Assembly (NCBI GenBank): GCA_036639875.1 | Contig: JAVWHX010000001.1 | Coordinates: 87,155 to 151,154 of the forward strand | Reading direction: 5' to 3' | Length of the DNA stretch: 64,000 bases | From: Coprobacillus sp. | GTDB lineage: Bacteria > Bacillota_I > Bacilli_A > Erysipelotrichales > Coprobacillaceae | Part shown: piece after piece, positions 37,811 through 64,000 of the stretch | Position numbering within the stretch: position 1 is the first letter of the stretch | How the letters are laid out: each line of letters begins with the position of its first letter | Notes under the pieces: generated by a model | Database searches by the model: none | Seen by the model: only the letters and a program-made list of their open reading frames with translations | What the model was told of the DNA's origin: nothing | Made by a program: the position numbers and the translations under genes

Positions 37811-38121
37811 TTTTCTAATTCCCCTTTTATATATTTATGAATTGTTTCAATTTGATACCATTCATTTAGAAAATCTTCAATATGTTGTTTTCCAAGTTTT
37901 GTAATCTTATAATACTTACGTAATCGGCTATTATGTTCAACAGAATATGTTTCTACATAATCATTACCTTCTAATCTTTTTAAAATAGGATAAAGCGTAG
38001 ATTCAGATATTTCTATATATTCACTAGTATCTTTAATAATCTGATAACCATACGAATCTTTTTGTACAAGACTTGCTAAAACACAAAATTCTAAAAAACC
38101 TTTCTTGAGTTGTATATCCAC
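37807..38121 (-). CDS. PadR-family transcriptional regulator
   Basis: KGFLEFCVLASLVQKDSYGYQIIKD ... STLYPILKRLEGNDYV. GTG start with GGGAGG RBS. Confidence 0.85.
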   Translation of the reverse strand: MDIQLKKGFLEFCVLASLVQKDSYGYQIIKDTSEYIEISESTLYPILKRLEGNDYVETYSVEHNSRLRKYYKITKLGKQHIEDFLNEWYQIETIHKYIKGELEK

Positions 38122-44300: not shown

Positions 44301-47300
44301 TATTGATGTTTGTATCATAGAAATCCTTATCCCAAAGTTGTTTCTTTGACGTATACTCAGAACATTTTATCGCATATTGCGGATTTTCTGATACAAGATA
44401 GACATTTTTATTTACTGCTGAGCCATTGCTATGTCGTATTGGATGCAATGATAAATTATATCCGCCATCAATAGGTCTATCATTAACTGTATCCGTTGTA
44501 AACTTATACATATCACCAACAACAAATATATTTTCTATAAGAGGATTTCTATAATCTGCAGTTATTATTCCTGAATAATTCGAATTTGCATAAATATCAG
44601 TAATTGCATAGATATTCTTTATTATTCCAGAAGAGTATTGAGTCACAATTCCTCCATCATTTCTCACATATATATGTCCATTCTTTGTTTTATTATAGAT
44701 ATAACCATTTTCAATGATTCCGAAGTTATTTCTGACAAAAACTGTAGAATTTACATTTGTTCCTACCATTTTAACCCAACTTTCACCATCGAACTCTATG
44801 ATAAAATTATTAATCTTTCCATAATTATCTCTCATAAAAGAGGTTGAACGAAATTGATCTCCTAATGCATTTGGTGCGTATATGATATTCTCCATAATTC
44901 CATAGTTATTTCTTACAACATTATAACCTAAGTCATCCCCAGCAACTCCTACAAACCTTACATTCTTCAATGTTCCAGACTTCCCAACATCAAAATTAGA
45001 ACGCCTTCCTTTCCCTAGAGAAAGTGTATGTCCTTGAAAATCTAATGTACCATTAAATGTAAAATCACTTAAAAATGGCCATTGTGTTTCCACAATATCA
45101 TTAACAACTATATAATTTCCCCATGTATCATTTTTAATATATTGAAAATCACTTATGGACTTTATTACATATGTGAGTTTATCAGATTCTACTTCACATT
45201 CATCTAAAACAATAACTCGTCCATGATATTGAATTGATATTTCAAACTTATAACTTTTTCCATTCTCCAAATAGACTGTTCTTGCTTGACTAACAGGCTT
45301 AATCTTTCCATTTTCATATGTCAGATGATTTTCACTCACCGTACTTATCTTATAGTCATCTTTTCCTATCACATTCGTTTCATACTGTGTAATGTAGTAG
45401 TTCTCTACATTTTGTAGTAATCCTGCATTATCTGTTAACGTTTCTTCTAATGATATGACCTTTTGATTCTTCGCCTCTTGTAAAAGTAACAATTGTTCGT
45501 TTCTGCCTTTTCCAAATGACCATCGCATATAGGCTGCATTTGTTGGAACCACAATAACATTTTCAGTTTGATGTCGACCTCCGATATATTTCTTTTCTTT
45601 ATCATAAAATACAGTTGGACCATTAAGTTTATAATAGATATCTCCTGGTGTTACTTCTATATAATCAGTAGAATTATAGGCAGTGTGATTGGATTGAAAT
45701 CCTGATCCAACATCAAGAAAAGCATCATTTATTATATTAACACCAATGAAAGCATCTTTTGGATTATCTATTTGAATCATGTTGGAGTTATTTAGGTTCT
45801 CAATTCTTCCTTGAACCCTTATATTTTTCCATTGATAGTAATTATTAATGACTGTTCTATCAAAATAAACACCCATTCCATCTGCATATGTCTGATTGTA
45901 AAATCTTTGAACTACTCTATTGTTAGTATCGTAGGCTAGCATTCTTAATAAGCCAGCACCAAAATCTTTTAAATATAATCCTTTTGTTGAATCAACAGGA
46001 AGATAATCAGTAACAAAATATCCTTCCTTATCTATAATATGCCCTTCATCATCTATTCCTTTATTCATCATGACTTTCTCTTTATCTATATTTCCTATAA
46101 CACTTTGATTATCATAAGTAAATTGCATATCATTCAGCTCTATGCTTCCTTCTATACCAAGTGTTGGTCTAAATGTAAATGTCTTAAATGTGAAGTTTCT
46201 TTGTAATGTCCCTGCTGTTTGTCCATCATTATACTGTGCTGCTACAAATCTTATCTCATAGTTATCTTCATCACTTAATGATTCAAATCGCATCTTTTCG
46301 ATTTTATCACCTATTAGATATGTATGTGACTCTATAACTTCTTCTCCTCTTACTAATTGAATTGTATATTTATCATCTAGTAATGTTTTATCAATATCAT
46401 TGACTTGTAAACCATAAAACTCGAAGAACTTCTGACCTTGAAAATAATCTTCATATATAATTTGTGGTTCTCTTTTCTTTGTAATGAAATTATCTTTACT
46501 TATCATTGTTTGTAAATCATAGATATATCCACCTTGATTTGCTTTACTTAAAACTTTCATTATATATTTCGTTGATGGACTTAAAGTTCCTTCTGTCATA
46601 GTAATATGAAGACTTCCACTCTTCTCTGCACTTGTTTCAAAATATGCACCATTGATAAATGCTTGCCATGGTGTCACTCCAGATAATAACAATTCTTTAC
46701 TGACACTTAACAAAATCTCTGGTTTATTTTTTTCTCCTTGTTGGATAATTAATTGTTTCTTTGTATCATCATAAAACTTCTGTATATCTACATTATCAAA
46801 CATCTCTTTTTGAATAGTGATTCCTACTTTATCATTTTTATCTGATGTTAATTCAAATGTTATTTCATTCATCAAATCAGCAAGTGATGTTGATGACTTT
46901 GTATTCATGTTGATATTAATAGTTGCGCTAGTCCCTAATATATTCGTAAATGAATTTGTATAATTTAATGTTCCATTCCCTATTGATGCTGAATAGAACG
47001 CTGAATTACATATTTCTTTTTTCTTATCTCCTGTATTATCTTCTATATTATAATTTGCTATTGCCTTTATATACAGTTTCTGTGAGAATGGCAAATTATA
47101 TATTGATAAATCTATGTCTTTATCTTCTTTACTAATTTGTATTTCTTTCGCTGTTTCTTTTACACCATCTTTTTCATATTGAATATTGAGTGGTTCTCCA
47201 CCCTCATCACATATCTTTACTGTATAATAACTATCTATTATAGCATTATCTATATCACTTAAACTCAACTTAAGTTTAAATGATCCTGCTTTGTTTTCAT

Positions 47301-47640
47301 TTATCTTAACTTTTACTACTGGTGTAGTTTTCGCTGTTTTCACTGTCCCTTTTATCTTCTCTGGTGTTGTTGGGATAGCATGAGAAAAACGATCTAAGAT
47401 TTCCATTGTATAACTATATGTTGAATTACTTTTTAATACTGGACTAGTTGAGAAGTCTAGCGTTTCTCCTTTGTTTAATTTTTTCATGATATCCGAACTG
47501 ATATCTGCCACAATTTCTTCTTTTGTTTGAGTATCTATAAAACGAATACTTCCTTTTGCAGCATATGGTAGTGTATTTTTATAAATGTTTTCTAATGTTT
47601 TATCTCCAGTTATATAATCACTATCATTTTCTAATTTCAA
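38365..47640 (-). CDS. giant envelope protein, distal 3,091 codons: FN3-like array, beta-helix/GLUG repeat blocks, C-terminal TM anchor
   Basis: Open frame of 9,276 nt. It has no SD sequence and only a TTG as a possible start. It lies in the same frame as ORF 47644-49113, separated by one TAA plus one codon. Contains GG[ILVAF]xG (GLUG-type) repeats. The C-terminus WVVIGTVFISISALLVVLYKKRK is a TM anchor. No LPXTG. Confidence 0.8.
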   Translation of the reverse strand: MKLENDSDYITGDKTLENIYKNTLPYAAKGSIRFIDTQTKEEIVADISSDIMKKLNKGETLDFSTSPVLKSNSTYSYTMEILDRFSHAIPTTPEKIKGTVKTAKTTPVVKVKINENKAGSFKLKLSLSDIDNAIIDSYYTVKICDEGGEPLNIQYEKDGVKETAKEIQISKEDKDIDLSIYNLPFSQKLYIKAIANYNIEDNTGDKKKEICNSAFYSASIGNGTLNYTNSFTNILGTSATININMNTKSSTSLADLMNEITFELTSDKNDKVGITIQKEMFDNVDIQKFYDDTKKQLIIQQGEKNKPEILLSVSKELLLSGVTPWQAFINGAYFETSAEKSGSLHITMTEGTLSPSTKYIMKVLSKANQGGYIYDLQTMISKDNFITKKREPQIIYEDYFQGQKFFEFYGLQVNDIDKTLLDDKYTIQLVRGEEVIESHTYLIGDKIEKMRFESLSDEDNYEIRFVAAQYNDGQTAGTLQRNFTFKTFTFRPTLGIEGSIELNDMQFTYDNQSVIGNIDKEKVMMNKGIDDEGHIIDKEGYFVTDYLPVDSTKGLYLKDFGAGLLRMLAYDTNNRVVQRFYNQTYADGMGVYFDRTVINNYYQWKNIRVQGRIENLNNSNMIQIDNPKDAFIGVNIINDAFLDVGSGFQSNHTAYNSTDYIEVTPGDIYYKLNGPTVFYDKEKKYIGGRHQTENVIVVPTNAAYMRWSFGKGRNEQLLLLQEAKNQKVISLEETLTDNAGLLQNVENYYITQYETNVIGKDDYKISTVSENHLTYENGKIKPVSQARTVYLENGKSYKFEISIQYHGRVIVLDECEVESDKLTYVIKSISDFQYIKNDTWGNYIVVNDIVETQWPFLSDFTFNGTLDFQGHTLSLGKGRRSNFDVGKSGTLKNVRFVGVAGDDLGYNVVRNNYGIMENIIYAPNALGDQFRSTSFMRDNYGKINNFIIEFDGESWVKMVGTNVNSTVFVRNNFGIIENGYIYNKTKNGHIYVRNDGGIVTQYSSGIIKNIYAITDIYANSNYSGIITADYRNPLIENIFVVGDMYKFTTDTVNDRPIDGGYNLSLHPIRHSNGSAVNKNVYLVSENPQYAIKCSEYTSKKQLWDKDFYDTNINKENTFEVDSLVELGYYPQLKMDSCMDKYQPYIKLPEVEDGIAPKVVDSVVTKQTEDYADVTIKMTNPNNDIISNITVDNVDCIIFEQQVVNHFYEVKVKVSNPKVYVSEYKISKFDYRSTHTENSATVTDSSIKAEFYKPINSFNDWMIMASNQSQNYRLKTDLDFSTVSNYNSIYLTKFTGKFDGGKYDADGKLIGMHTISNINPPSDFSKVSALIDAMNGTFKNVRIQGFEWMRDTTLSTALINTTIGEISNIHIRDISLEGTDGIISGLVNTAGMMSEIKNCSIKDMKLKSVPSNTATSNTISGMTSTLNGKLNHCYVSDFEIELDTSRTEISPSAAGIVGKLGSSGVLLDSYASGKIKSLMNNGGLVGVRVANEEGKIQRCYSDVIIESSNEYNGGISVNTSSRNCLSVGSMMLSKADYNYAHRIAAKKNSYPIDKDNYAYSGQYFNNMDIGVDDATGLLTREQLSNKDTYLYTIKMGNAFDYSEVENGALPKVKNTNGELLPDQQSKYLSSDNVKMSVINSKQMGETYEVEVEVHHEGFDIQNITIDDMTELSIDKTTKNDVSVCTITSKKLKALDLYKLNVILKNKKNPAIMTLSSMVDYQGPVYWEISNSQQWQNIVANHKESSENFKIIGIIDFEGIKNPVLDVAVNRFIGQDKATSIIKNLTFNDSQGYNLIKNSMSGISDITFDNININYETSAPNKGAMGIIKQNSADLENCVFKNSKLNANLFNGSIIGMIGNNVGNIKNVEVSEILIEGTYKTVITGTNGSVGGLVGSCSGGMQNITGKNIIVNASESTSVGGIVGYQNVTYLKATSNNDISVENVSLKGKSNIGGIGGYNTTKISTNYSAKNVLIEGNGTNHGGIFGVTYANINNSELDGVSLQDITINSTISSYYIGGAVGTGTGIVYDINAKNINLKGGSGIGGILGKGNVSNSIIENVTVNAERFNAGGVAGECNNSVVNSEVRFANVRAKYAAGGVVGRGGCYTVTVVNADVQAEKYAGGIVGSGNVITDGEADIENKVYSPPPYWCAVYDTKVKTTKDYAGGIIGFSGHKTVKSTDWHNVVARCEIEANNYAGGFFGGSYGMDTNITTRYAIVRDTKITAKNNYAGGIAGCVILDNPNFSSYGGYVSNIDVHASSYAGGLFGYVQEVEGVTPIKRLRGYLIHNSRVSSVDKEKSNFVTYNYRDIVEDKNILGIKIEENSTLNGIKAKDAGIWQDPTREHIEVITEADIGDYDLLTNVYDPVTGTTKNSKRPGLAWATNQMSVYATLELGRDFSAVNGKNDFSFTPIDYTKHVFRVHADLPDGTYKIYSANKPSEMYDLVIKSKEGDVTISSVTCQFQRISLKLKVNEDTIWSSVLAYLSNYFTTAKVVEGQTYYEGNDVSPQTIILEDGDYTWYKDRNYNLGKDNSTSIVAGKGNQITIPSRGYYYAIDATNKKISPLFTFDTHGYLPSVVSGNTTPKYQEGLAVPGDYSTAYSVLDGLFEGEARLDYIPRTPSLGTLSSKARMATIEKKLPKLNVYSSGTDRINIEFNDSLSAYQDKGIQVKLSYGSTEKEYTVKERTLTIGYDYQTDIEIKVSYGKESYDYLVKAEDVIQSVSTYKNRYYYLVDDGVKDNDMKWQGDYIHLYHNEVLSKEQEIVSLKDSKKRKAAILGELLETKEIYSGENQGYQIKNYSTYSTTNNKEVNDMLLVKRGKLHIIDGHLEKRGIQVIVDVYNGKQIQCILQENGKLLNVIGEIKTPEGFRNEDIVEISGTMENDTTIMFVRYKDGTLVGFDYLSGKTIDVESQSKDIGFFDFMKTSFFSLFDAPVENIESKEGDVETFENELIQLDEEGLTLLEEAEMIIVSNKNSDTEKTVLTSEEKEEIIEKVEKQKSKNSQERQAYVTKYNAKEGKFETYQKQSILEAEEEIISENEKIKELEKNGLDIKQLKNEPQVNKINNGFPLDWVVIGTVFISISALLVVLYKKRKMIQN
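40846..42200 (-). repeat. degenerate tandem coding repeats of GLUG type (predicted beta-helix), block 2
   Basis: At least 13 copies of the xGG[ILVAF][VIFAG]G motif, spaced about 20-30 aa apart (VGGLVG, VGGIVG, IGGIGG, HGGIFG, IGGAVG, IGGILG, AGGVAG, AGGVVG, AGGIVG, AGGIIG, AGGFFG, AGGIAG, AGGLFG). Confidence 0.65.
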
Positions 47641-47643
47641 ATC

Positions 47644-49113
47644 TTATATTTTCATCATATTTGATGATAATATATCTTTCATTTCATAATTAACTTTGAT
47701 TGGTTTGACATTATCTTTAATAGCTAATGTCTTAGTTTCTGTTAACTCTAAAAATGTTTCTGCTGTTTTCTTTCCAAATTCATCATAATACTGATAAACT
47801 CCTTCTACATATATAGTTGAATCTGGTGGTAATATAGATATTTCTGCTTGTACACTCTTTAAAAATTGTTTTCTCATTAAGAGTGTTCCTTTTGAATCAT
47901 AGACATTAAAACGTATTCCTCTTATGATCTTATTTGATGGATCATTAATTGTAAGATCAGTATGAATCGTATAAACCCATGTTTTTAACTCATTATTTGT
48001 AACTGTTGGTTTTATATATGTTGTATCTGGTGGAGCTGGATCTTGAGGGTCATCTTCGCCTTCACTATCCCCTTCTCCATCGCCTTCGTTTTCTCCGCCT
48101 TCTCCTACACCTTCTCCTGGCTTATCACTCTCAGATCCCCCAGTATGATCACCTCCAGTGTTACCTTCATCAACTGGTGGTGTTGGTTTCACTTCTGGTT
48201 TCTCTGGTTCAATTGGACTTGGTGTTTGCTCTCCGGCCTCTGGTAAACTCCCCTCATCTCCTATATCATCTTTATCACTATTTTCCCCATTATCACCTTG
48301 CACTTTATCTTCAGATGGTTGTTTCTCTTGTTCATTTTGAATAGGTTCTCTTTTCTCCGCAGGCTTTTTATTCTTTTCTTCTTCTCTTTTTTCTATTTCT
48401 TCTTTAATTTCTTCCTCTTTTTTCTCTATCTCTTTTACTGTTTCTTTTACAATTCCTAATTGCTTTAAGAAATCACTATAATTCATTGTTTTCCCATTAA
48501 GTGTTATCTTTGCGTTTTGAAGTCCTCTAACAGCTAAAAAGTTTAGTTTTCCTTCATTATAACAATATGCATTGATATAAGTTTCTGTGAAATTAGCAAA
48601 TGAATTGACAGGTAAAACATATGTTTCTAACAATGTTTGTATCTTAATATCTTTATGATTCATAAAAATACCATTCTTCAAATAAGCCATTGTTATTTTC
48701 TCATTATCCACTTGTTTTCCACTTGCATCAAAACTATGACCTCCACTTAAATACATCCCTTGTGCACTTGTTAAAACATCAAAATCCTCAGTTATAAGCT
48801 GAGGTTGTGCTTCTATGAATCGTATCCCAGCTCCTTCTTTAATAAACATAGGAAACTCTAAATCTACCTTTTTCTTGTCATTACTTACATAATATGAATC
48901 ACCATTTATATAGATAGGTTCAGTTTCACTGACTTTTACTAGTGAAACAGCATCAGCTTCATAAATATCTTCTTTATTCAATGATTCTTCAATATCATTT
49001 TCTTCTAAAACATATCCATTTTCATCAATATAAGAATGAACAATATATGTATTCATTTGAATAAAAACCAACGCCGATAACATAACAACTGCAAGAATAA
49101 TTAGTTTTTTCAT
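47644..49113 (-). CDS. N-terminally anchored envelope protein (489 codons); probable proximal part of the giant protein
   Basis: Strong RBS GGAGGTG. N-terminus MKKLIILAVVMLSALVFIQ is a signal or anchor. Then a juxtamembrane domain with a KITLNGKTMNYSD motif, an E/K coil, an acidic Pro/Gly spacer and the first FN3-like module. Ends at a TAA that is in frame with the next ORF. Confidence 0.8.
   Translation of the reverse strand: MKKLIILAVVMLSALVFIQMNTYIVHSYIDENGYVLEENDIEESLNKEDIYEADAVSLVKVSETEPIYINGDSYYVSNDKKKVDLEFPMFIKEGAGIRFIEAQPQLITEDFDVLTSAQGMYLSGGHSFDASGKQVDNEKITMAYLKNGIFMNHKDIKIQTLLETYVLPVNSFANFTETYINAYCYNEGKLNFLAVRGLQNAKITLNGKTMNYSDFLKQLGIVKETVKEIEKKEEEIKEEIEKREEEKNKKPAEKREPIQNEQEKQPSEDKVQGDNGENSDKDDIGDEGSLPEAGEQTPSPIEPEKPEVKPTPPVDEGNTGGDHTGGSESDKPGEGVGEGGENEGDGEGDSEGEDDPQDPAPPDTTYIKPTVTNNELKTWVYTIHTDLTINDPSNKIIRGIRFNVYDSKGTLLMRKQFLKSVQAEISILPPDSTIYVEGVYQYYDEFGKKTAETFLELTETKTLAIKDNVKPIKVNYEMKDILSSNMMKI
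48025..48444 (-). repeat. low-complexity coding spacer (E/K-rich, then acidic Pro/Gly-rich)
   Basis: aa 224-363: KEIEKKEEEIKEEIEKREEEKNKK ... PSPIEPEKPEVKPTPPVDEGNTGGDHTGGSESDKPGEGVGEGGENEGDGEGDSEGEDDPQDPAPP. Locally GC-rich, which generates spurious antisense ORFs. Confidence 0.8.
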
Positions 49114-49130
49114 AGTTACACACCTCCTTC

Positions 49131-49823
49131 TTATTTCATTTCATCTAAATCATCAACATTGTTATATAACAAAATATTTTTATCTTGGTTTATTAACACA
49201 CCATTTTTTAAATCAATTTTATAATCAGCACATGTTGCTTCCAATGTATCCGTTATTATTTTATTTGTTGTTATTTTTTTTGTTTTCGACTCATATAAAA
49301 CAAATGCCTTTGAATTCATATTTACATAAATACTTGAGAATGCATCTAACTGCTTTTGTTCTCCATTAATTGTAATCTGAGTTTTCTCTAAAAATATATA
49401 TGTTGATTCTCCATCATATAAAAATCCAAGATCACTTACTATTTTATTATCATTAAAAATCCCTTCTTGTTGAGAAGCAAAAACAGAAAAATGATTAGCT
49501 CTAAAATATTGTTTTGATCTTGCGTTGACATAAATCATATCTTTTGGTAAAACAATACTATTTGATGATTCCAAATAGAGTGGCATTGCACTTAATGTCA
49601 CATTACTTGTGCATCTTCCTTCACATGTTTTTTCTTTATCATAATAAAGTTCTGTTCCTTTTTTATAAGAAATGATTGTTCCAGCTCCAGGTTGAGTAGC
49701 TGTCTCTTTTAAAGTGAAAGTTGAACTATCATTTAAAAAGAAATAAAGCGCTGCTGCCATAACCAAAAATATAAAGCTTGCTATTATTGCATAAATAAAC
49801 GATTCTTTTTTCTTAAGTTTCAT
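49131..49823 (-). CDS. bitopic membrane protein carrying only the shared juxtamembrane domain
   Basis: 230 aa. N-terminal anchor FIYAIIASFIFLVMAAALYFFL and a QITINGEQKQLD motif. GGAGGT RBS. 4-nt overlap with the upstream gene. Confidence 0.75.
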   Translation of the reverse strand: MKLKKKESFIYAIIASFIFLVMAAALYFFLNDSSTFTLKETATQPGAGTIISYKKGTELYYDKEKTCEGRCTSNVTLSAMPLYLESSNSIVLPKDMIYVNARSKQYFRANHFSVFASQQEGIFNDNKIVSDLGFLYDGESTYIFLEKTQITINGEQKQLDAFSSIYVNMNSKAFVLYESKTKKITTNKIITDTLEATCADYKIDLKNGVLINQDKNILLYNNVDDLDEMK

Positions 49824-50306
49824 ACTTTCTTACCTCCATTTACCAAAAAATATAATTCATACAAAAATAAATATATGGAATACATTGTTATACATATTCC
49901 TGTTAAAATATAAACAACGAGAAACATCATTGGTGTATGCATGATAATCATATATTGAAATATCATGTTGTTAATGATAAGTGCCACAGCACATAACAAT
50001 ATATTAATTGCTACATAAACAAACATCTTTAAATGTTCTATAAATACCAAACATAAAATCGCCTGACATATATAAAACATGACATGAACAGCATTAAGAG
50101 ATTGGAAACGAAAAACAGAACTGATTATAAAACACATAAAAGAAAAACAGCTTATAAGTTCCAATCTTGCTTTTGTATTTAACATCATCAATAGATGTTT
50201 CCATATATATATTTTTTCATTTTTCTTAGATAAAATGACAATTGTATAAGTACATAATACAAGTAAGATAGAAACAACTATATATTCTTTTAATTGTGCA
50301 ATATTA

Positions 50307-50323
<17 letters not shown>
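49820..50323 (-). CDS. small polytopic membrane protein (4-5 TM), unknown family, last gene of the ATPase cassette
   Basis: 167 aa and very hydrophobic. Overlaps the epsilon-like gene by 17 nt and the next gene by 4 nt. I could not recognise an a-subunit LRLxxN-type motif. Confidence 0.7.
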
Positions 50324-52788
<2,465 letters not shown>

Positions 52789-52792
52789 ATGG

Positions 52793-54109
52793 TTATTCCA
52801 TAAATGCAGAAAAAATCTGTACCATTTCTTCTACATCTTTTGCAGAATATTTATATTGTTTAAATGCTTCAAGAAGTTTTTGACCACGTCTTAATTTTGT
52901 TTGAAGTGCTTCACCCATTTCATCAATATTCGCTAACTCATAAATATCTCGTGTTTCCAAATAACTTAAAAGTTCACGTCTTGTTTTACTTCCTATTTTT
53001 TTAACTTGTTTTTCTTGTACACTTCCTCCTAATCTTGATACACTCAAACCATAATCAATCGCCGGTTTTTGCCCTTTATCAAAATTCTTCTTACTTAATA
53101 CAATTTGTCCATCAGTGATTGAAATAATATTCGTACTTATATACTCTGTTATATCTCCACCTCTTGTTTCCATGATAGGTAAAATCGTAATACTTCCTCC
53201 ACCAACATGTTGACATCCTTTTTCTAAAAGTCTTGAATGTGTATAGAAAATATCACTTGGATATGCATCTCTTCCTGGTTCTTTTCCTGTCAATAATGCT
53301 ATTTCACGATAGACATCTGCATGACGTTTTAAATCATCAATAACTACCAATACATCCTTACCCTGCATCATATAATCTTCTGCTATTGATAAACCAACAT
53401 AAGGTGTCAATGACATAACAGGAGGCTGTTCATCATTGTTCGCACAAAGGATAATTGTATGCTCCATTGCCCCTTGATACATAAGCTGTTGATAAATATC
53501 TTTAACTGACTTCTTTGTTTTCCCAATAGATATGTAAATACACAATACGTCTTTACTTTTTTGATTACAGATTGTATCTAAAGCAATTTGTGTTTTTCCA
53601 GTTTTTTTATCTCCAAGAATAAGTTGTCGTTGCCCTTTTCCAATAGGATACAATAAATCGATACCTGATATTCCTGTATACAACGGTCTATTAACACTGT
53701 TTCTTGACATTATTGATATTGCATTATGTTCAATGGGTTGTGATTTATAGTTTGCAAAATACTGTGCATTCATCTGATCTTTCCCAAACATATCGACAAT
53801 ATGTCCAATTGAATCTTCACTAAAAGTTGCTTCAAATTTTCTCCCCGTTAGTGTTGCTTCATCTCCTACATAGATATCCTTTTCTATCTTCACTAATGAT
53901 ACAATGACACTATCTTCTTTAATAACATTAATATATCCTTTTGCTTTATTCCCTATTTGAACTTCTTCAAAATAACCAGCGTTCATTAAACCTTTGATTT
54001 CTACAACATATTTGTATATGCGTATGATTCTTCCAGTTTCAAAAACATTAGTTGAAGCTTGCATATTATGAATCTTGCTTGTTATTTTTTCTTTCATAAA
54101 ATCATTCAT
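52793..54109 (-). CDS. F1 alpha-like subunit (C-terminally shortened)
   Basis: Walker A QLILGDKKTGKTQIALDTICNQ, VVIDDLKRHADVYREIALL, GREAYP-like GRDAYPSDIFYTHSRLLE, ITDGQIVL, and PAIDYGLSVSRLGG (arginine-finger region). 438 aa, against roughly 500 aa for typical alpha subunits. Confidence 0.9.
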   Translation of the reverse strand: MNDFMKEKITSKIHNMQASTNVFETGRIIRIYKYVVEIKGLMNAGYFEEVQIGNKAKGYINVIKEDSVIVSLVKIEKDIYVGDEATLTGRKFEATFSEDSIGHIVDMFGKDQMNAQYFANYKSQPIEHNAISIMSRNSVNRPLYTGISGIDLLYPIGKGQRQLILGDKKTGKTQIALDTICNQKSKDVLCIYISIGKTKKSVKDIYQQLMYQGAMEHTIILCANNDEQPPVMSLTPYVGLSIAEDYMMQGKDVLVVIDDLKRHADVYREIALLTGKEPGRDAYPSDIFYTHSRLLEKGCQHVGGGSITILPIMETRGGDITEYISTNIISITDGQIVLSKKNFDKGQKPAIDYGLSVSRLGGSVQEKQVKKIGSKTRRELLSYLETRDIYELANIDEMGEALQTKLRRGQKLLEAFKQYKYSAKDVEEMVQIFSAFME

Positions 54110-54121
54110 ACTGCCTCCATT

Positions 54122-54873
54122 CTACAGACTAAAATCATATAATCTGTCTTTATATCTAATTCGATACCCTTCTAATATTTCGCTATCTTTCAATTGTATT
54201 AATTCTTTTGAAGATTCAACAGGATTAACTTCTTTATTTGAATAAATATATATATGTGGATCATTGTTAAAAATATAATCTTTCAAATAACTTATAAACA
54301 AATATAAATCAAATGACTGTTTTTCTTCACAATACTTCTTAAAAATAGTAAATTGGGCTGGAAGAGTTTTTAAAACATCATTTATCACTTCTATTTGTTG
54401 ATTTGAATTAAGGTTCATCAAACCATAATAAACATCTATATCAAATAATGATAAAAGGTCTTCATAATCTTGAACTGAAATAAAGTTCTCTTTTTTTAAT
54501 TCATTAATTGCTTCTAACGATAAATTTAAAGAATTTATTTCAAAATCACATTTCACCATTCTATAATGTTCATCAAAACGATTGTTTTGATAAACGGCCT
54601 GTTTGATAAAACTTTGTTCTCTCTTTTTTTCTTCTTTTTCAATTTTTGTATTTATAATCTCATGAGACGAGATACTGAGTAAGTCGATTTCAGCTTGCTT
54701 TTCTAATAATTCTGCAGTTTTCTTTTCTAATAACTCATCATAAAGATCTGCCATAACAACTCCTACTTTTTTATATATCTGTTGATGAATATCTTGACAT
54801 ATTTTTTTAACAGCAAAAAGTAAGAATGCAGCTAATGATACCATCACTAAAATAACTGCTATAAAACTTATCA

Positions 54874-54874
<1 letters not shown>
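54122..54874 (-). CDS. b-like peripheral-stalk protein with unrelated C-terminal globular domain
   Basis: 250 aa. One N-terminal TM helix (ISFIAVILVMVSLAAFLLFAV), an approx 70-aa charged helical segment (ELLEKKTAELLEKQAEIDLL ... EKEEKKREQ), then an approx 140-aa domain of unknown type. Occupies the position of atpF/atpH. Confidence 0.55.
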
Positions 54875-56707
<1,833 letters not shown>

Positions 56708-59700
56708 CTACTTCTCATAGAGGTATGTCGTCGAATATGAATCAGTTTTTTCAAAAACGTCACCATTTTGTAAATAATAATTAATCATAATACGATAATA
56801 CCCCAAATTTTCTAATGATAGTGGGAGTTCCATTGTGTAATAACCACCGAGTTTTTCACTAAACAAGGTTCCATTTTCATTCATGAGCACTCCTGTAAAA
56901 CTTGACTTACCATCACTGCTAATAACTGTATATTCAACTTTCTTAATAGAATTTAAGTTACTTGCATTCTTATAAGATATAGCTATTTTAGAAGGATCAC
57001 GATTTGGATTTTCAACTGTTACATCTCCATAAGCAATTCCATTTTCACCAGGTGTCATACGAACATCTTCCCAAATCAAATAATCTTCTTTATCTTTTTC
57101 AAATGTTTCATGATCTAACGAAGCTATACTTCCTTTAACATCTGGATTATTATCACAAATACCATCCCTATTCATATCTATACTTGCATAAATAGCAATT
57201 CTATAATTAGTGTTTGGTTTCAAATCTTTTAATGTCATTGTATAATTTTTTCCAGGATCATAAACTTTATATAAGTCTTCAGCTGCAGTTACATCTTTCC
57301 ATGAACTATCTTCTTTTTCAAAATAACGAACATAGTAAACAGAATTATATCCATTCTCAATCAGATAATCACTCATTATAACTTGAGAATTATCCGCTAC
57401 AGAAGTATCCACTTTCATATCAATTGTTTTAGTACCTTGATGGTATTCTGGAACGAGATTTGTAAATGTAATAGGCATTGTAGTAGGGGCTATTTTAAAT
57501 CCTGCTATTGAAGTTCCTAAAATAATACTTTCATCAATTTTTCCATCGGTTACCTGATTTATAGTGGTTTTAATTTGATACTGTGTATCATTTTTCAATT
57601 TATGTTTTGCAACATTTAACATAAAACTAGGATTCATATTTGTTTGATAATTATCTCCTACTTTATAGCCATCATACATTCCGGCATTGATCATATCTTG
57701 ATTACTCATAATCACATTACCAAATTCATCAAGAATGCTATACCTAATAAAGAATCCACTCACTTGGTCAATATTATAAGAAAGAACCAATCGTTGTACA
57801 TCATATGTTTCAATCTTATATTGTAACTTTGAAGAACTGATGTTAACACTACCTTTTGTCTTTACTTCTTTCATAAATGCACCAGATTTTTTTGCATCAA
57901 GTAATAAACTATCTTGTTTATTCACTTTTGCAGTGAAAGTAATACGATATGATGTATCTTTCTTTAAATTGTTTAAGACAATAGAAGATTCCGTTGTCAA
58001 GTTTGTTACGTTAATTGATTGTACGATTTCTTCATTTGTTAGTAGATTTTTAATATGTGCATCAATAAATCGCTTTCCACTACTATCAGCATCAATTTGG
58101 CTAACTCCACTTATATCCACACCATATAAGTTAATAGAAGTCATGTTTTGTCCATAAGAATCATTGACACTGATAGAAGGTACAATTTTCGTAAGTTCAA
58201 AATTTTGTGCTTCATCAGTAACCAACTTTGTTTCATTGATCTTTTTTACAACAAAATAATTAAGTTGTTCTTGTGGAGCTGTCCCAATAATATAAGCCAT
58301 CCCATTTTGATCAGCACGAATTGAATAGTTATTTGTTAGGTTTCTGAATTTAGAAGTAACAACAAAATCTTGTTTTTGTTGAATTGTTTCATAATCTAAT
58401 AAATTATTTAATGTAAATATTGAACCAGATGCCGTTGTTGAAGTCTTAATAATTGCACCACTTTGTTCATCAAAAGCTATATAATTACCGAGAACATAAT
58501 TCCCTGATTTCTTTGTGATATATTGTAAAGCAAACCTATCTCTATTTGTAAGTTCCCAACTCATATTGTTTGAATCATAACAAAGAGATACGTCAGTTCC
58601 AATTGTCTTACCTATAAGCTTATCCAGTTTGGCAGTAGAGATATATCCTATATTTGAAGCATTAAGAGTCATATATGTAGAATAATAACTTGTTGGATTA
58701 TTAACATCATAGAATCTTACATTAACCCCTGCTATTTTCTTATTAAGCAAATCAAGGTTTGATGATCCAACTGGATCTTTTAATTCTATTTTAATTTGAT
58801 TTTTTTCTAAATCAGCAACAACATTGTATTTAAGTTTGCTTATAATATCATTGTTGAAAGTACTAGAGAAATCAATAGGTTGATACATGATATCTAAAAT
58901 ATTTGTTTCATTTTTGTATGATAAATTATATAACTGTCTGCTTATTTGAGGGATGAATTGTCCGTTTTTTAAGCTCGATGATATAATCGAATTAAACGTA
59001 ACACTTCCCCATGTATTTTCATCTACATCGATTGCATCACCATAAGAACCATTTACCAAAAACTTTGTTTCATTTTTCTTTATTGTCTTATCATTATCAC
59101 TATAACGATATTTCAATGTCAAACTTGTTTTATTTGTATTATAATTAGAAACACTTGGATAAATAGTGAATTTTGGTTCAATTTTAGGTGCATCCTTAAT
59201 CCCAGAATTTAAGACATAAGCAGTGCTTAGTTTGTTTGCTAAAGCTGCATACTGAGGATGTTCATAAGGATAAATCTTATCTCCCTCACCAGCCCCAATT
59301 TCACTATAACTTAATGCATACGCAAAGTTATACTTATATCCTCTTGACATACCTGAAGATAATGCATTTGAAGTTGCTTCTGCCTTGCCTGAATATGTAA
59401 CATTGACTCCACCGTATGTTGTATCCACACCTTCTCCAAAAAAGATTGCACATACAGGAACGTTACTGTTTGAAGGAGAAATCGCAATTTCTTTACGCAC
59501 CACCCATTCACCACTATTCTTTAACCCACCATCTAGCCCAAAATCATAAATTGGATTTTGATTAGCAGATAATAAATTGGCAAATTGATTACTTTCAAAT
59601 GCATAATAATACATTTTTCTAGCTAATTTCGCATAATTATCGTAATTTGCCTCTAAGCGATATCCTACAATCGCATTGTCATCTAACTTTGAATCAACTG

Positions 59701-62608
59701 TTTTTCCGTAAATTCCAACATCTTTATTATAGATGATTGTTGATTTAACTTGGTCGTTCATTATTGTGCTATCTGGTAATGCAGGAGCTTGATTCGCTTT
59801 TGTGACAATAACTTCTCTTGTTGTATCAGTCACATTATATTGATTCTTATAACGTGATATATTTGATGGATTGACATAATCATCAGAACCAGTTGTATCA
59901 TATATAGTATTAATTCTTATGGTATATATAGTACCTGTTAAAGAATTAGCTTTAAATCCGAAATCTATTTCAGATACTTCTTTACCATTTATAATAAAAT
60001 CATCAACTAAACTATTCTTCTCAGGGTCTTTATCGACATCAGTAAATATCTTCGAACCCATAAAGACCTTGCCATTTCCACTACCTTTGTAAAGATCTAA
60101 AGTTATCTTGTTTAAAGCGTTCATTTGATAAGTACTCTCTTGTCCTGTCCAACTTCCATCAGTCGCATCCAATTTTAGTATACGAGCAACTGAATTTGAT
60201 GAAGAATTATTGATCTTCCAATCCGCTTTTAATTCAGAAAGACTTGTAGTTGATGTAACAACATTTCCAAGAACATATGGCAAAGATCCATCTCCGTCTT
60301 TAAGATCTACATAACCATTTACTCTAAAACGATAAACACTATCTGCTTTTAATCCTGTTTCAGCAATATTAAGTATAATTTGATTTCCATACGCTGCAAC
60401 GATTGGATTATTTTTTGATGTTATCTCAATTGTCTTAGCATAATCACCTTCACAATCAATATGAATAATAAGTGGATGTTGTGCACTTATATCCATTGTC
60501 GATCCATTTAAATCAATAATGAGATTTCCAGATATATAATCATGTTCTACTTTTGTTGGTTGCATTGATAGTGCAGGAAGATAACTTTCACTCATTTTAA
60601 ATGTTTCAGAAAATTTTGATTTTACTTCAATGATTTTTTCATTGTCATTATAAGTCGTTACCATTCTAAAACGATATGGATGACTAGTGAAAATAACTTT
60701 TTTATCAATTGGTAAAAATACTGCTTGTAAACCACTTCCAGGTTCAATTGCAATTGTTTTAAGAATCTCATCATATTGTGAACTATTTTCATCAGCATCA
60801 TAAACTTCATAATATTGCTCTATAATCGAATTATCATCATCTTTCAATACCCCACTATATAATTCAAAACATTTTAATGGTTTATTTCTAATTGCGTACA
60901 AATCATCGCTTAAAGATGGTTTTTTCTTTAACGTCATTACTTGTAAAACTTGTTGTGTTATATATGTTTTTTCATCATCAAAAGCAACTAATCTCACTAC
61001 AAATTTTTGATTAGATTTAATCTTATCAAACTCATTTCCATCAAAAGTTAAAATTTCATCAGTAAAGTCCTCTCCCATATCAACCGTTTTCTTTATATAA
61101 TTAGATGTAGAGTTGACATCAAAATTTTTAGACTCTTCACTTGTTAATAAATAAATATCTGCTCTTTGTGTTTTTGAATAAGTATTTTTAGTTAATTTCA
61201 CTTTAACTGATGATGTTGTAATACTATCTTTTTCCATAAAGAGTCCTAGTGAATCTGTATAGAAGACTCTTGAAACAAATTCACGTTGGAATTGTTGTTC
61301 ATTCATTTCATAAGTTGCTGTTAAAACAAGTCGATATTCAGTATCTGGTTTTAATGGATTAACAGTTGAATCTGTATGAAAAGATATTGATTCTCCTTGA
61401 ACATTAAAATCACTTTCTCCATTCTCATTAAGACATGAAACCATTGTTCCACTACCAGCTTCATAAACAAGTATTTTTGCACTTTCACTTGTTAACATAA
61501 CATTTTCATCAGTGATTTTTAAACTTCCTTTTAAACTTATTGCATCTACTTCCCATGTTTGAATAGAAAACTGTGGGAGTCCAGTTTTAGAACTTGATTC
61601 CTGTCCCGCATCTGATCCACTTACTCCTGGTTTCCCAGTTGTACCATTTTTACCATTCGTCCCAGAAGTTCCGTTATCTCCATTATTTCCACTCGTTCCA
61701 TTACTTCCTTGTGTACCTGAAGTTCCTAAAGTTCCATGTGTTCCCTTATTCCCGTTATCTCCACTTGTTCCTTCAGTACCTTCAACACCCAATTCTCCTG
61801 CTTCGCCATCTGTTCCATTATTATTTTTAATATCAAATTTGGGAACTTGTTGATTTCTTTTTTCTAATGGTGACAATTCAATATTACTATCAGCATCAAC
61901 AACGAGCTTATTTAAAGTCATTTGATTCTTATTTTTTTCAACAACTTGGTCAAATAATTTAACAGTCGTTCCTAAACCATTTTTAATAGAAGCTGTTGTA
62001 GAAACACTTTGCCATACATTATCTTGTGTAACCAATTGTACAACACCTTCATCAATATAATTAATTTCAATAAAATCTCCTGCTTTACGAATATCGTTTT
62101 TATCAAATACAACTTCAATATTTTCTGAAAACATAACAAATTTAGAATCAGATATTTTTAAAATACCTTCCTCTATTTTGAATGATTCATTTTGGCTTTC
62201 TAGTTGCCAGGTTTTCCCTGATTTTTCTAAAATCATTCCTATAGGAAGCCCATAATGATTAATCGCTCCATTCTTTTCTAAATCCTTAAAATTCATAAGA
62301 ACTCCTCTGGATAATGCGGAAATAGAGCCATCTTCATAATGCAAAAAACTAGATGACTCAATCTCTGCTATTTCACCAGCATTATCCTCAAATGCATATT
62401 TGTTTGGGTATTTTTCTTCATATTGTGTTCCTTGAGTAAACTGGTATCTTGTACTCTGCGATTGTGAATCTGCTTGAATCACATATCCTCCCTTTTCAAA
62501 AGTTTTTAAAGAAGAATTATTAACACTAACTGCTATAAAAAAAACACCTATCATTGAAATAATGACTAATACTATTACCAAAAGAACTCCTTTTTTACTT
62601 TTCACATG
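56708..62608 (-). CDS. giant envelope protein: N-terminal anchor, juxtamembrane domain, collagen-like G-X-Y spacer, long FN3-like array
   Basis: GTG start at 62606-62608, 7 nt after GAGGAGGA (the track start at 62626 is a TTG extension). Hydrophobic segment GVLLVIVLVIISMIGVFFIAV. 23 G-X-Y triplets. Recurrent FN3 hallmarks LKPDTEYRLVLTA, LKADSVYRFRVNG, LKKDTSYRITFTA, LKNDTQYQIKTT, LKPNTNYRIAIYA. Confidence 0.85.
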   Translation of the reverse strand, partial: HVKSKKGVLLVIVLVIISMIGVFFIAVSVNNSSLKTFEKGGYVIQADSQSQSTRYQFTQGTQYEEKYPNKYAFEDNAGEIAEIESSSFLHYEDGSISALSRGVLMNFKDLEKNGAINHYGLPIGMILEKSGKTWQLESQNESFKIEEGILKISDSKFVMFSENIEVVFDKNDIRKAGDFIEINYIDEGVVQLVTQDNVWQSVSTTASIKNGLGTTVKLFDQVVEKNKNQMTLNKLVVDADSNIELSPLEKRNQQVPKFDIKNNNGTDGEAGELGVEGTEGTSGDNGNKGTHGTLGTSGTQGSNGTSGNNGDNGTSGTNGKNGTTGKPGVSGSDAGQESSSKTGLPQFSIQTWEVDAISLKGSLKITDENVMLTSESAKILVYEAGSGTMVSCLNENGESDFNVQGESISFHTDSTVNPLKPDTEYRLVLTATYEMNEQQFQREFVSRVFYTDSLGLFMEKDSITTSSVKVKLTKNTYSKTQRADIYLLTSEESKNFDVNSTSNYIKKTVDMGEDFTDEILTFDGNEFDKIKSNQKFVVRLVAFDDEKTYITQQVLQVMTLKKKPSLSDDLYAIRNKPLKCFELYSGVLKDDDNSIIEQYYEVYDADENSSQYDEILKTIAIEPGSGLQAVFLPIDKKVIFTSHPYRFRMVTTYNDNEKIIEVKSKFSETFKMSESYLPALSMQPTKVEHDYISGNLIIDLNGSTMDISAQHPLIIHIDCEGDYAKTIEITSKNNPIVAAYGNQIILNIAETGLKADSVYRFRVNGYVDLKDGDGSLPYVLGNVVTSTTSLSELKADWKINNSSSNSVARILKLDATDGSWTGQESTYQMNALNKITLDLYKGSGNGKVFMGSKIFTDVDKDPEKNSLVDDFIINGKEVSEIDFGFKANSLTGTIYTIRINTIYDTTGSDDYVNPSNISRYKNQYNVTDTTREVIVTKANQAPALPDSTIMNDQVKSTIIYNKDVGIYGKTVDSKLDDNAIVGYRLEANYDNYAKLARKMYYYAFESNQFANLLSANQNPIYDFGLDGGLKNSGEWVVRKEIAISPSNSNVPVCAIFFGEGVDTTYGGVNVTYSGKAEATSNALSSGMSRGYKYNFAYALSYSEIGAGEGDKIYPYEHPQYAALANKLSTAYVLNSGIKDAPKIEPKFTIYPSVSNYNTNKTSLTLKYRYSDNDKTIKKNETKFLVNGSYGDAIDVDENTWGSVTFNSIISSSLKNGQFIPQISRQLYNLSYKNETNILDIMYQPIDFSSTFNNDIISKLKYNVVADLEKNQIKIELKDPVGSSNLDLLNKKIAGVNVRFYDVNNPTSYYSTYMTLNASNIGYISTAKLDKLIGKTIGTDVSLCYDSNNMSWELTNRDRFALQYITKKSGNYVLGNYIAFDEQSGAIIKTSTTASGSIFTLNNLLDYETIQQKQDFVVTSKFRNLTNNYSIRADQNGMAYIIGTAPQEQLNYFVVKKINETKLVTDEAQNFELTKIVPSISVNDSYGQNMTSINLYGVDISGVSQIDADSSGKRFIDAHIKNLLTNEEIVQSINVTNLTTESSIVLNNLKKDTSYRITFTAKVNKQDSLLLDAKKSGAFMKEVKTKGSVNISSSKLQYKIETYDVQRLVLSYNIDQVSGFFIRYSILDEFGNVIMSNQDMINAGMYDGYKVGDNYQTNMNPSFMLNVAKHKLKNDTQYQIKTTINQVTDGKIDESIILGTSIAGFKIAPTTMPITFTNLVPEYHQGTKTIDMKVDTSVADNSQVIMSDYLIENGYNSVYYVRYFEKEDSSWKDVTAAEDLYKVYDPGKNYTMTLKDLKPNTNYRIAIYASIDMNRDGICDNNPDVKGSIASLDHETFEKDKEDYLIWEDVRMTPGENGIAYGDVTVENPNRDPSKIAISYKNASNLNSIKKVEYTVISSDGKSSFTGVLMNENGTLFSEKLGGYYTMELPLSLENLGYYRIMINYYLQNGDVFEKTDSYSTTYLYEK
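61610..61816 (-). repeat. collagen-like G-X-Y triplet coding repeat (23 uninterrupted units)
   Basis: GTDGEAGELGVEGTEGTSGDNGNKGTHGTLGTSGTQGSNGTSGNNGDNGTSGTNGKNGTTGKPGVSGSD, with Gly at every third residue and Thr/Ser/Asn-rich X/Y positions. Confidence 0.9.
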
Positions 62609-62967: not shown

Positions 62968-64000
62968 TTATATTAATATCCTTACTACAAATATTTTATT
63001 ATCTGTTTGATACAAAACTTCTCCGTTATATGTATTGACAAATTCAATAATACTTTTGGTTCCAAATCCATGTTCATCATGACTAGAAGTTGGATAGCCA
63101 TCTTTATCAAGAGAAATTTTACCATCATAAGGATTTTTCATTTCTACAATGAGTTGCTTGTGAGTATAAGCAACAGTAAACAATATGTATTTCTTCTCAG
63201 CTTCCTGTAACTTCATACATGCATGAATCGCATTTTCTAATAAATTAGATAATATTAATGACAATTTCAAACTATCAATTTGTATTTCATATGGTATATC
63301 AAGCTTTGTAACAACTTGTATATCATTTTCTTCACAACGTTCAATATAAAAAGAAATAGCAGCGTTTACAACAGTGTTTTCACAATATTTCTTTTTTGTT
63401 TTAATTGTAACATGAAGTTGCTTTTCTAAGCTATCAATAGCTTTTTCTATTTCTCCATTATGTAATAACTCCAATAACATTCTACTAAAATGACGGTGAT
63501 CATGTTGTGCAATTCTAATTTGACTCGTCACTTTTTCCTGCAAATTAAATCGTTCTTCCAATCTTTCTAATGATACTCGCATGACATCTTGTCTATTTTT
63601 AAATCTAATATTTTCTTCCTTAACTCTATATTCATTATCAAGATTTTTTAATGAATGAAAAACAGAAACATAAAAACTACAAGATAATATAATTAATAAA
63701 AGTAAAGTTATTTTCTCATCAAACAATGTCTTCGTGATTTCATCAGATTTAATAAAATAATAAGCAAAGTTAAAATATATTAAAACCGATACATAAACAA
63801 AATGATTAAAGTGCTCAACAGCTTGATGATATAACGGTTTCAACTTGTTTTTTAGCAAATAATAAAGGAGCACAAATAATATAAAACGTATAATAATATT
63901 TGTGTATAATGAGAAAGGTAAATATCTAGAAATTATAAAACTAAATACTATAACAACAAAATTGATATTTTGAACTGTTGTAAAACTAAAAATCCATTTT
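62968..64000 (-). CDS. GHKL sensor histidine kinase (AgrC/LytS-like); 5' end beyond the window
   Basis: H-box IRIAQHDHRHF, N-box LILSNLLENAIHA, G-box HGFGTKSI. The hydrophobic N-terminal region stays open to position 64000, so the track GTG start at 63873 is probably internal. Confidence 0.75.
   Translation of the reverse strand, partial: KWIFSFTTVQNINFVVIVFSFIISRYLPFSLYTNIIIRFILFVLLYYLLKNKLKPLYHQAVEHFNHFVYVSVLIYFNFAYYFIKSDEITKTLFDEKITLLLLIILSCSFYVSVFHSLKNLDNEYRVKEENIRFKNRQDVMRVSLERLEERFNLQEKVTSQIRIAQHDHRHFSRMLLELLHNGEIEKAIDSLEKQLHVTIKTKKKYCENTVVNAAISFYIERCEENDIQVVTKLDIPYEIQIDSLKLSLILSNLLENAIHACMKLQEAEKKYILFTVAYTHKQLIVEMKNPYDGKISLDKDGYPTSSHDEHGFGTKSIIEFVNTYNGEVLYQTDNKIFVVRILI

Follow-up and report, generated by a model that had tools for sequence, protein, structure and literature searches.

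The 64,000-nucleotide stretch of Coprobacillus sp. DNA analysed here and called the window below (assembly GCA_036639875.1, contig JAVWHX010000001.1, positions 87,155–151,154) encodes three large envelope proteins, G, S and T, each with a low-complexity spacer of its own chemistry between a membrane anchor and FN3-like modules. The question raised by this locus is whether these proteins are three stalks that are merely similar in length, as the initial annotation had it, or parts of a common assembly. A comparison of spacer lengths among genomes, which that annotation had suggested, revealed that the spacers of S and G are matched genome by genome and lose their glycine repeat together, while the spacer of T is irregular and follows them only weakly. 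It is considered fairly probable that G, S, T and a fourth paralogue, J, are extracytoplasmic subunits of a conserved 11-gene F-type-like ATPase envelope machine, in which S and G form an in-register collagen-like stalk. The host is a member of the Erysipelotrichaceae, and this group of the Bacillota is akin to the Mollicutes.

All relevant genes are located on the minus strand, in a region of about 30% GC. Since they overlap or are at most 17 nt apart, they constitute one operon of about 24.3 kb (38365–62626), transcribed in the order G, S, c-like, b-like (P250), α, γ, β, ε-like, a′-like, J and T. Promoter and terminator scans at the ends of the operon gave nothing better than shuffled sequences. 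The γ protein is 100% identical to a deposited protein of a ‘Coprobacillus sp.’ metagenome-assembled genome (MAG). An exact-sequence look-up of S (P518), in turn, found no match, the window copy being one residue off the deposited protein. Related loci were collected with a pattern scan built from the γ family, which gave 279 matches in GTDB species genomes; 80 of the 279 were fetched and compared. Family alignments of S, G, J and T were built from these 80 loci and an exhaustive homologue search, and the spacers were cut off before profiles were compared.

G (P1972, 56708–62626) is a giant envelope protein. Its earlier length of 1,966 aa, counted from 62608, needs revision: position 62608 is a CAT codon, and translation probably begins with the GTG at 62605, which follows GAGGAGG and gives the 1,965 aa called in sibling assemblies. 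G has no C-terminal transmembrane segment. S (P518, 55139–56695) is a short paralogue of 518 aa, and T (P489 and P3091, 38365–49113) is encoded at the opposite end of the operon. The plan ascribed to these proteins (a short basic tail, one transmembrane segment, a juxtamembrane domain, a spacer and FN3-like modules) was found in full. Kyte–Doolittle scans place the N-terminal transmembrane segment at aa 14–32 in P1972, 13–31 in P518 and 4–22 in P489, in each case after a Lys/Arg-rich tail. AlphaFold2 (AF2) models of P518 and P489, made with the family alignments, have a mean predicted local distance difference test score (pLDDT) of 82 and 80. The P518 model comprises a transmembrane helix (aa 7–36), an all-β domain of about 20 short strands (aa 41–223, 56027–56575, or aa 41–207 by a tighter boundary, pLDDT > 93), an unstructured GGX run and two β-sandwiches (aa 321–415 and 422–513, pLDDT > 90). 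That of P489 contains a transmembrane helix (aa 2–20), an all-β domain (aa 24–219, 48457–49044, or aa 24–211 by a tighter boundary, pLDDT > 92) and a β-sandwich (aa 370–461). In G, the corresponding juxtamembrane domain spans about aa 36–262 (61841–62521). The fourth paralogue, J (P230, 49131–49823), which was absent from the initial annotation, has the same transmembrane segment and juxtamembrane domain and nothing further.

The juxtamembrane all-β domain, about 170–190 aa long, is common to the G, S, T and J families. Unrelated juxtamembrane regions and distal modules would undo the common plan; both were compared by means of profiles, and both proved to be related in the three proteins. The hhalign comparison of juxtamembrane profiles gave 95.6% for S–G (score 62.7, E 1e-8), 89.7% for S–J (46.9), 78–80% for S–T (40), 79–84% for J–T (40), 60% for G–T (36) and 23% for G–J (30). 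All six pair scores (30–63) exceed those of all 24 controls (maximum 27), of which 12 were made with reversed profiles and 12 with unrelated families from the same operon. Family profiles were needed, plain BLASTP among the window proteins being too weak for T and J; its sole match was S–G (E 3e-9, spacers included). Judging from these profiles, the common blueprint of G, S and T is due to homology, and the four proteins appear to be N-terminally membrane-anchored paralogues. No Pfam or NCBIfam model covers the juxtamembrane domain, and Foldseek searches with the whole P518 and P489 models found no PDB or BFVD match to it at E ≤ 1e-3, only FN3/Ig matches; it appears to be a fold without a solved relative.

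FN3-like β-sandwich modules were recognised in all three proteins, in P518 by AF2 and Foldseek, in P489 more weakly by the same means and in P1972 by Pfam and profiles. The two sandwiches of S (aa 321–513, 55157–55735) match tandem FN3 domains (Foldseek E 1.8e-6, TM-score 0.59–0.65), while the first module of T (aa 370–461, 47731–48006) has weaker FN3/Ig matches (E about 1e-2, TM-score 0.57–0.66). G contains four tandem modules found with profiles (aa 351–793, 60248–61576) and further modules at aa 1483–1591 and 1723–1827; a Pfam fn3 match lies at aa 1762–1815 (28.2 bits vs. a cut-off of 25). By profiles, G has at least six modules and T at least five within its first 1,000 residues. Single-family profiles were required for this comparison, since sequence searches with the FN3-domain profiles of S had picked up a single module of G and none of T. 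When the first post-spacer module was turned into profiles, one family at a time (an earlier iterated version was dropped as partly circular), these recognised the equivalent position in the other families: T to G with E 6.5e-8 (15 matches), G to T with E 3e-7 (32 matches) and T to S with E 2e-5 (13 matches). The hhalign values for this module are 97% for T–G and 88.5% for G–S. No whole-protein NCBIfam or Pfam model was found to be homologous to G or T, and a sequence search of the PDB gave no match to P3091.

The third protein had been listed as ‘489 (+3,091)’ aa, as if it were split, but it is a single gene of 3,582 aa, the interrupting TAA being peculiar to this assembly. The P489 and P3091 open reading frames (ORFs; 47644–49113 and 38365–47640) are in frame and separated by this one TAA (47644–47646), and a Peptococcia homologue aligns over the junction in one high-scoring segment pair. 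Three sources that are 99.9% identical to the window (GCA_036639035.1, GCA_036641255.1 and SRR25820360) have GAA (Glu) for TAA, with a 3,582-aa product called. In the AF2 model of P489, the next module begins just before the TAA. An exhaustive search with P489 aa 1–225 yielded 328 cluster representatives, and most of the listed matches are 3,400–3,800 aa long and matched at their N-terminus; a word-indexed search with P489 had returned three proteins only, probably on account of low-complexity words. The TAA is either a nonsense mutation specific to this strain or an error in base calling. In GCA_036641255.1 (L082 185–6081), it is the G gene that is split, into 518 and 1,429 aa. Near-identical assemblies thus differ as to which giant gene of the cluster is disrupted, a difference that could reflect assembly error or on/off variation of surface proteins.

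T ends with a transmembrane helix (38392–38448) followed by KKRKMIQN, and this ending of helix and Lys/Arg tail is kept across the T family; no LPXTG motif is present. A conserved ‘SENEK(I/L)’ precedes the C-terminal helix by about 40–50 aa in the T-family giants (38365–38620 in the window). Because of the conserved C-terminal helix and basic tail and the lack of LPXTG, T probably has a membrane anchor at either end.

The three chemically different spacers are present as described. The spacer of G (aa 271–339, 61610–61816) is a collagen-like (G-X-Y)23 run, net acidic and with a single Pro; it matches Pfam Collagen (PF01391; 32 bits vs. a cut-off of 27.2), and its sequence matches in the PDB are collagens only. 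The spacer of S (aa 241–315, 55751–55975) is an uncharged run of 24–25 (G/A)-G-X triplets in a single register. In T (48007–48450), an E/K helix (aa 226–248) is followed by an acidic Gly/Pro-rich stretch that runs to about aa 369 and is disordered in the AF2 model. The type of spacer is fixed for each family across orders: GXY in G, GGX in S and irregular acidic in T. The S spacer is 55–63% Gly in nearly all of the 63 orthologues and is about 25–220 aa long (8 to 70 GGX triplets), with G at position 1 in 97% of triplets, G at position 2 in 90% and T, N, S, A or D at position 3. The G spacer comprises 9–33 consecutive Gly triplets in 27 of the 32 orthologues with an intact N-terminus and is strongly acidic and almost Pro-free. 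In T, the spacers are acidic and irregular, contain much Pro, Gly and Ser and measure 73–413 aa.

The triplet counts of S and G agree genome by genome. Over 32 loci, the counts (range 6–37) correlate with a Pearson r of 0.977 and a mean difference of 0.9 ± 1.7; with hidden Markov model (HMM) boundaries in place of triplet counts, Spearman ρ is 0.97 (n = 32). The S/G values are 25/23 in the window and 19/20, 37/36, 20/20, 34/33, 29/28, 31/31 and 13/11 in other loci. In Tannockella kyphosi, both spacers have 18 triplets, each right after ‘DITG’ (‘DIK’ at that place in the window); more generally, both begin after a φ-D-I-(T/K) motif. Loci without GGX in S are also without GXY in G. When loci were permuted, the observed mean |S−G| of 1.6 triplets compared with 9.0 expected, the minimum in 10,000 permutations being 5.25. 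Kinship among loci was addressed with 16 non-overlapping nearest-neighbour pairs chosen by β-protein distance. Their contrasts, 10 of which are non-zero, give r = 0.94 (p = 7e-5), the paired S/G changes being 8/8, 6/5, 17/17, −13/−17, 11/12, −7/−6, 20/10, 0/1, −1/−2 and 0/3. Gene conversion was examined as a cause of the match and rejected, the spacer-coding DNA of S and G sharing no similarity beyond codon-shuffled controls.

These lengths bear on the explanation that G, S and T are independent stalks, homo-oligomeric or monomeric, whose lengths all follow the thickness of the cell wall. The spacers do occupy the same position, their lengths in the window are similar (78, 79 and 117 aa by HMM boundaries), and a rod of about 20 nm is within the general range of Gram-positive walls. 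T length also correlates with that of S (ρ = 0.55, n = 54) and, weakly, with that of G (ρ = 0.39, n = 28). T is, however, often two- to three-fold different (96 vs. 244 aa in L003, 64 vs. 27 aa in L017 and 199 vs. 63 aa in L044), while the difference between S and G stays within about one triplet. Close relatives differ by 8–20 triplets, the changes in S being matched by those in G, and the Gly repeat is lost jointly from both. In addition, the net charge of G spacers is −1 to −22 (−5 or more negative in 17 of 21), against −5 to +3 for the near-neutral S; a triple helix of G alone is disfavoured by this strong acidity, which makes such spacers poor candidates for homotrimers. A common ruler for three separate stalks is therefore regarded as unlikely. 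Of the earlier proposal that the glycine-rich spacers are oligomeric, the conserved repeat type of each family agrees with oligomers, but the triplet-for-triplet match of S and G speaks against separate homo-oligomers. The length pattern points to co-assembly of S and G rather than to three homo-oligomers under a common ruler, since the match is triplet-exact and the loss of the Gly repeat joint, while T tracks them weakly.

The genes between the three proteins, which the initial annotation had not connected with them, are no bystanders. They specify an F-type-like ATPase, one subunit of which is a c-like protein of 81 aa whose ORF had not been listed. The α-like (438 aa, 52793–54109) and β-like (450 aa, 50654–52006) subunits have P-loops, the latter's Walker A motif being GGAGVGKT, and match ATP-synt_ab with E 2e-72 and 1e-67, respectively. 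The γ-like subunit (261 aa, 52003–52788) scores 77.5 bits against ATP-synt (cut-off 39.9). NCBIfam has no model for this ATPase clade; α and β score highest against atpA and atpD, with β just over the atpD cut-off (474 vs. 463 bits). The ε-like protein (116 aa, 50307–50657) has only ATP synthase ε/δ chains as PDB profile matches, all of them weak (E 0.1–0.6).

The c-like subunit (54874–55119) is a two-transmembrane hairpin with a GRNPET loop, comparable to the ARQPE of canonical c subunits. It matches NCBIfam c models with E 1e-7, below their cut-offs, and a precomputed PF00137 match is recorded on identical orthologues. The hairpin is extremely conserved across orders (its consensus ends in LLLLLFAFxFxLLFFNPL), and no column of helix 2 holds Asp or Glu in about 60 orthologues. 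The column corresponding to E. coli D61 holds Thr. The b-like P250 (54122–54874) has an N-terminal transmembrane segment, a charged helical region and a conserved C-terminal domain. The a′-like membrane protein (167 aa, 49820–50323) has 4–5 transmembrane segments and is poorly conserved, with no invariant residue and hence no invariant Arg; a semi-conserved Arg is missing from the window copy. Profiles of the a′-like and b-like proteins found nothing in PDB sequences, Pfam or NCBIfam, and no recognisable a or δ subunit was found in the cluster. Because the c subunit is without an ion-binding carboxylate, the ATPase seems unable to carry ions, and its ATP hydrolysis is probably not used for ion pumping. 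From this lack of the canonical carboxylate, we infer that hydrolysis may do mechanical work on envelope proteins.

An ATPase beside giant proteins might also be an export or assembly motor for them, similar to FliI/FliJ of type III export, with the spacers as passive linkers. The α-like and β-like subunits do score against FliI/SctN models, and the operon contains very large candidate substrates (1,965 and 3,582 aa). The subunits are nevertheless of F-type (best scores to atpA/atpD, a γ subunit, a c-hairpin with a GRNPE loop) and not FliH/I/J-like; no export-gate proteins are present, and such a motor leaves the triplet-exact S–G match unexplained. This explanation is considered highly unlikely.

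In 17 of the 80 loci, one ORF of about 400 aa encodes both the a′-like protein and J (L007, L013, L019, L020, L024, L026, L032, L036, L037, L039, L040, L053, L062, L064, L066, L069 and L073), and this fusion argues that the two proteins may touch. The same 17 loci also hold an extra short T-like protein of about 450–570 aa ahead of the giant ORF.

The gene order G–S–c–b–α–γ–β–ε–a′–J–T is nearly invariant in the fetched loci, with G of 1.6–2.0 kaa, S of 0.42–0.77 kaa and, as the last gene, a giant ORF running off the end of the locus. The hosts belong to the Bacillota and Actinomycetota and include Lachnospiraceae, Oscillospiraceae, Peptococcia, Erysipelotrichales, Coriobacteriales and Bifidobacterium colobi. 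All eleven genes are intact in the complete genome of a Tannockella kyphosi isolate. Just upstream of the cluster in this genome (CP088239.1, L085 1–40) lies a transposase/integrase (rve_3) gene, and this, together with the patchy spread over two phyla, hints at horizontal transfer of the cluster. No description of the cluster was found in the full-text literature searched, the coverage of which is incomplete, so that a prior description is possible; the cluster is widespread in Gram-positive gut bacteria and apparently undescribed.

Some loci deviate from the common arrangement. In three Lachnospiraceae MAGs (L030, L031 and L038), G-like and S-like genes are situated downstream of the a′-like gene, and multi-transmembrane proteins are encoded upstream of the b-like gene. 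One locus labelled Thermoguttaceae, Planctomycetota (L025) has gene lengths identical to those of a Roseburia MAG (L028), namely 1957, 524, 81, 269, 441, 261, 453, 94, 184 and 243 aa, and their β proteins differ at 0.2% of positions; it probably represents contamination or mislabelling and not a diderm host.

The conserved synteny and the fusions bear on the simplest explanation, that ordinary adhesins with disordered linkers happen to lie beside an ordinary ATP synthase operon. Existing annotations are merely ‘hypothetical protein’ and ‘F0F1 ATP synthase subunit’, which would fit it, as would the small excess of the β-like protein over the atpD cut-off. It is contradicted, however, by the near-invariant synteny across phyla, the c subunit without carboxylate, the lack of a recognisable a or δ subunit, the a′–J fusions and the conserved type and co-evolving lengths of the spacers, and is hardly tenable.

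In the envelope machine favoured here, the cytoplasmic and membrane core would be the F-type-like ATPase, with J associated with the a′-like membrane subunit. S and G would form a parallel hetero-oligomer, the juxtamembrane domains setting its register. This is suggested by Gly at every third residue in both proteins, the same start motif, the equal triplet count per genome and the homologous domains that flank the spacer. The two spacers would make one collagen-like rod of the polyproline II (PPII) type; at 0.286 nm per residue, 23–25 triplets correspond to about 20 nm, which, with the juxtamembrane domain added, falls among the thicknesses usual for Gram-positive walls. In a helix of G alone, like charges would repel one another; the near-neutral GGX chain would ease this repulsion, and the FN3 arrays would be carried at the outer end of the rod, beyond most of the wall. 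T, with a floppy spacer and both ends anchored, would form a separate giant loop. Formation of the hetero-helix, crossing of the wall and mechanical coupling to the ATPase are the conjectural parts of this scheme.

Several observations weigh against the scheme. The AF2 monomer models leave both glycine-rich spacers unstructured (pLDDT about 40), which fits plain disorder as well. The spacers are almost Pro-free (0–6%) and GGX is not classical collagen, so the stability of a triple helix is uncertain. Charge complementarity of S and G, compared triplet by triplet, gives an ambiguous picture: it is marginal with N-terminal anchoring of the runs, and C-terminal anchoring reverses it for like charges. 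The loci in the length statistics are phylogenetically related, a problem that the sister contrasts lessen and do not remove. Of the four surface proteins, J alone is tied to the ATPase, through its fusion with the a′-like protein; rotation of the ATPase and its contact with G, S or T are hypothetical. Finally, some of the N-terminal hydrophobic segments could be cleaved signal peptides. A further observation is that Asn co-occurs at the same triplet index of S and G more often than expected (p = 0.002), which is a hint only, the loci not being independent.

A bolder version of the envelope machine can be drawn as a drive shaft. The c-ring, free of carboxylates, would bear the transmembrane helices and juxtamembrane domains of S and G within it or on top of it. 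A stiff rod about 20 nm long would transmit ATP-driven rotation or cranking through the peptidoglycan to the FN3 arrays, and J–a′ and the doubly anchored T would serve as a stator or cage. Such a rotary surface motor of walled Gram-positive bacteria might be an ancestor of the mycoplasma F1-like X0 machines. ATP6AP1 and ATP6AP2, single-pass proteins inside the c-ring of the V-ATPase, offer an analogy. This version is speculative and thought improbable.

The genes that flank the operon showed no link to the cluster in the window; they encode a GHKL kinase, PadR, HAAS and radical SAM proteins. The gene for the GHKL (HATPase_c_5) membrane protein (301 aa, 62968–63873, minus strand), of the AgrC/LytS-type sensor kinase kind, lies upstream, about 340 nt from the operon. 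Directly downstream of T (37214–38121, minus strand) are the genes for a PadR-family regulator and for a membrane protein with a HAAS domain, which appear unrelated to the cluster.

Walled Gram-positive bacteria of gut and rumen, at least 279 species with the cultured Tannockella kyphosi and Bifidobacterium colobi among them, have a comparable pairing of ATPase and surface proteins. A c-ring kept without its ion site would be a natural experiment on uses of rotary ATPases other than ion movement. The triplet-exact co-evolution of GXY and GGX runs in two proteins is a clean mark by which a bacterial collagen-like rod of heteromeric make-up can be tested for, and it supplies an engineerable molecular ruler. 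If the ATPase does move the surface proteins, the machine would represent a new way to send mechanical energy across a thick cell wall.

Among known bacterial proteins, Scl1 and Scl2 of Streptococcus, BclA of Bacillus and Lcl of Legionella resemble G in having an uninterrupted, low-Pro GXY run, charged or Thr-rich, beside a globular domain. These are, however, homotrimers, LPXTG-anchored or attached to the exosporium, whereas the anchor of G is an N-terminal transmembrane helix and its run is matched in length to the GGX run of a second protein. G scores 36–42 bits against the NCBIfam models of the Scl1/Scl2/Lcl adhesins, NF038329, NF038330 and NF046116 (cut-offs 325–500) and has no C-terminal sorting signal. 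The closest architectural analogy is found in eukaryotic collagens. The transmembrane collagens XIII, XVII, XXIII and XXV have a cytoplasmic N-terminus, one transmembrane segment, a juxtamembrane association domain and a collagenous rod that folds from N to C, and in heterotrimeric collagens and C1q, chains of equal triplet number are held in register. The differences are that no sequence relationship exists, no hydroxyproline is expected, one chain here is GGX and the genes are linked to an ATPase. Polyglycine II (PGII) and GGX 3(1)-helices are known from the snow-flea antifreeze protein and spider-silk GGX, with a small or polar X as in S. Compared with the snow-flea PGII bundle, S is without turn, Pro or Cys elements, its 8–70 triplets vary in number and AF2 predicts no fold for them.

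For the ATPase and its partners, the comparison is with mycoplasmas. The Gli proteins of Mycoplasma mobile, of about 1,100, 3,200 and 4,700 aa, are comparable in size to the 518-, 1,965- and 3,582-aa proteins of the window. F1-like X0 ATPases that work with surface proteins have been regarded as mycoplasma-specific (PMC3369863, PMC12994834) and are thought to act mechanically on Gli proteins or on MIB-MIP (PMC12994834, PMC11864180). In M. mobile, the Type 2 G1-ATPase, together with Gli123, Gli349 and Gli521, is an F1-like ATPase thought to drive giant transmembrane-anchored surface proteins (PMC8406192, PMC11864180, PMC7052211). In the window, by contrast, a single operon holds the genes of both ATPase and surface proteins, among them one for a c-like subunit, and the host has a cell wall. 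The Type 3 cluster with MIB-MIP, like the present one, combines F1-like α, β, γ and ε subunits with non-F0 membrane proteins (PMC3369863, PMC12994834). The adjoining membrane-anchored surface proteins of Type 3 need the ATPase for their function (PMC3369863, PMC12994834). The Type 3 order differs, comprising a 12-transmembrane protein, a small cytoplasmic protein, γ, ε, a protein with a signal peptide and two transmembrane segments, α and β, with no c-like gene; the 12-transmembrane protein, in turn, has no counterpart in the window operon. The surface partners are unrelated: the proteins of the window carry no MIB or MIP signature and have instead collagen-like and GGX stalks and FN3 arrays in a walled host. 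Against the NCBIfam models MSC_0618/0619 and MMOB1660/1670, the α and β proteins score 394.8, 326.4, 398.7 and 391.2 bits, below the cut-offs of 570, 520, 600 and 850. Functionally, the system thus stands closest to the Type 2 and Type 3 F1-like ATPases of mycoplasmas, but differs from them in gene content, gene order and the model cut-offs.

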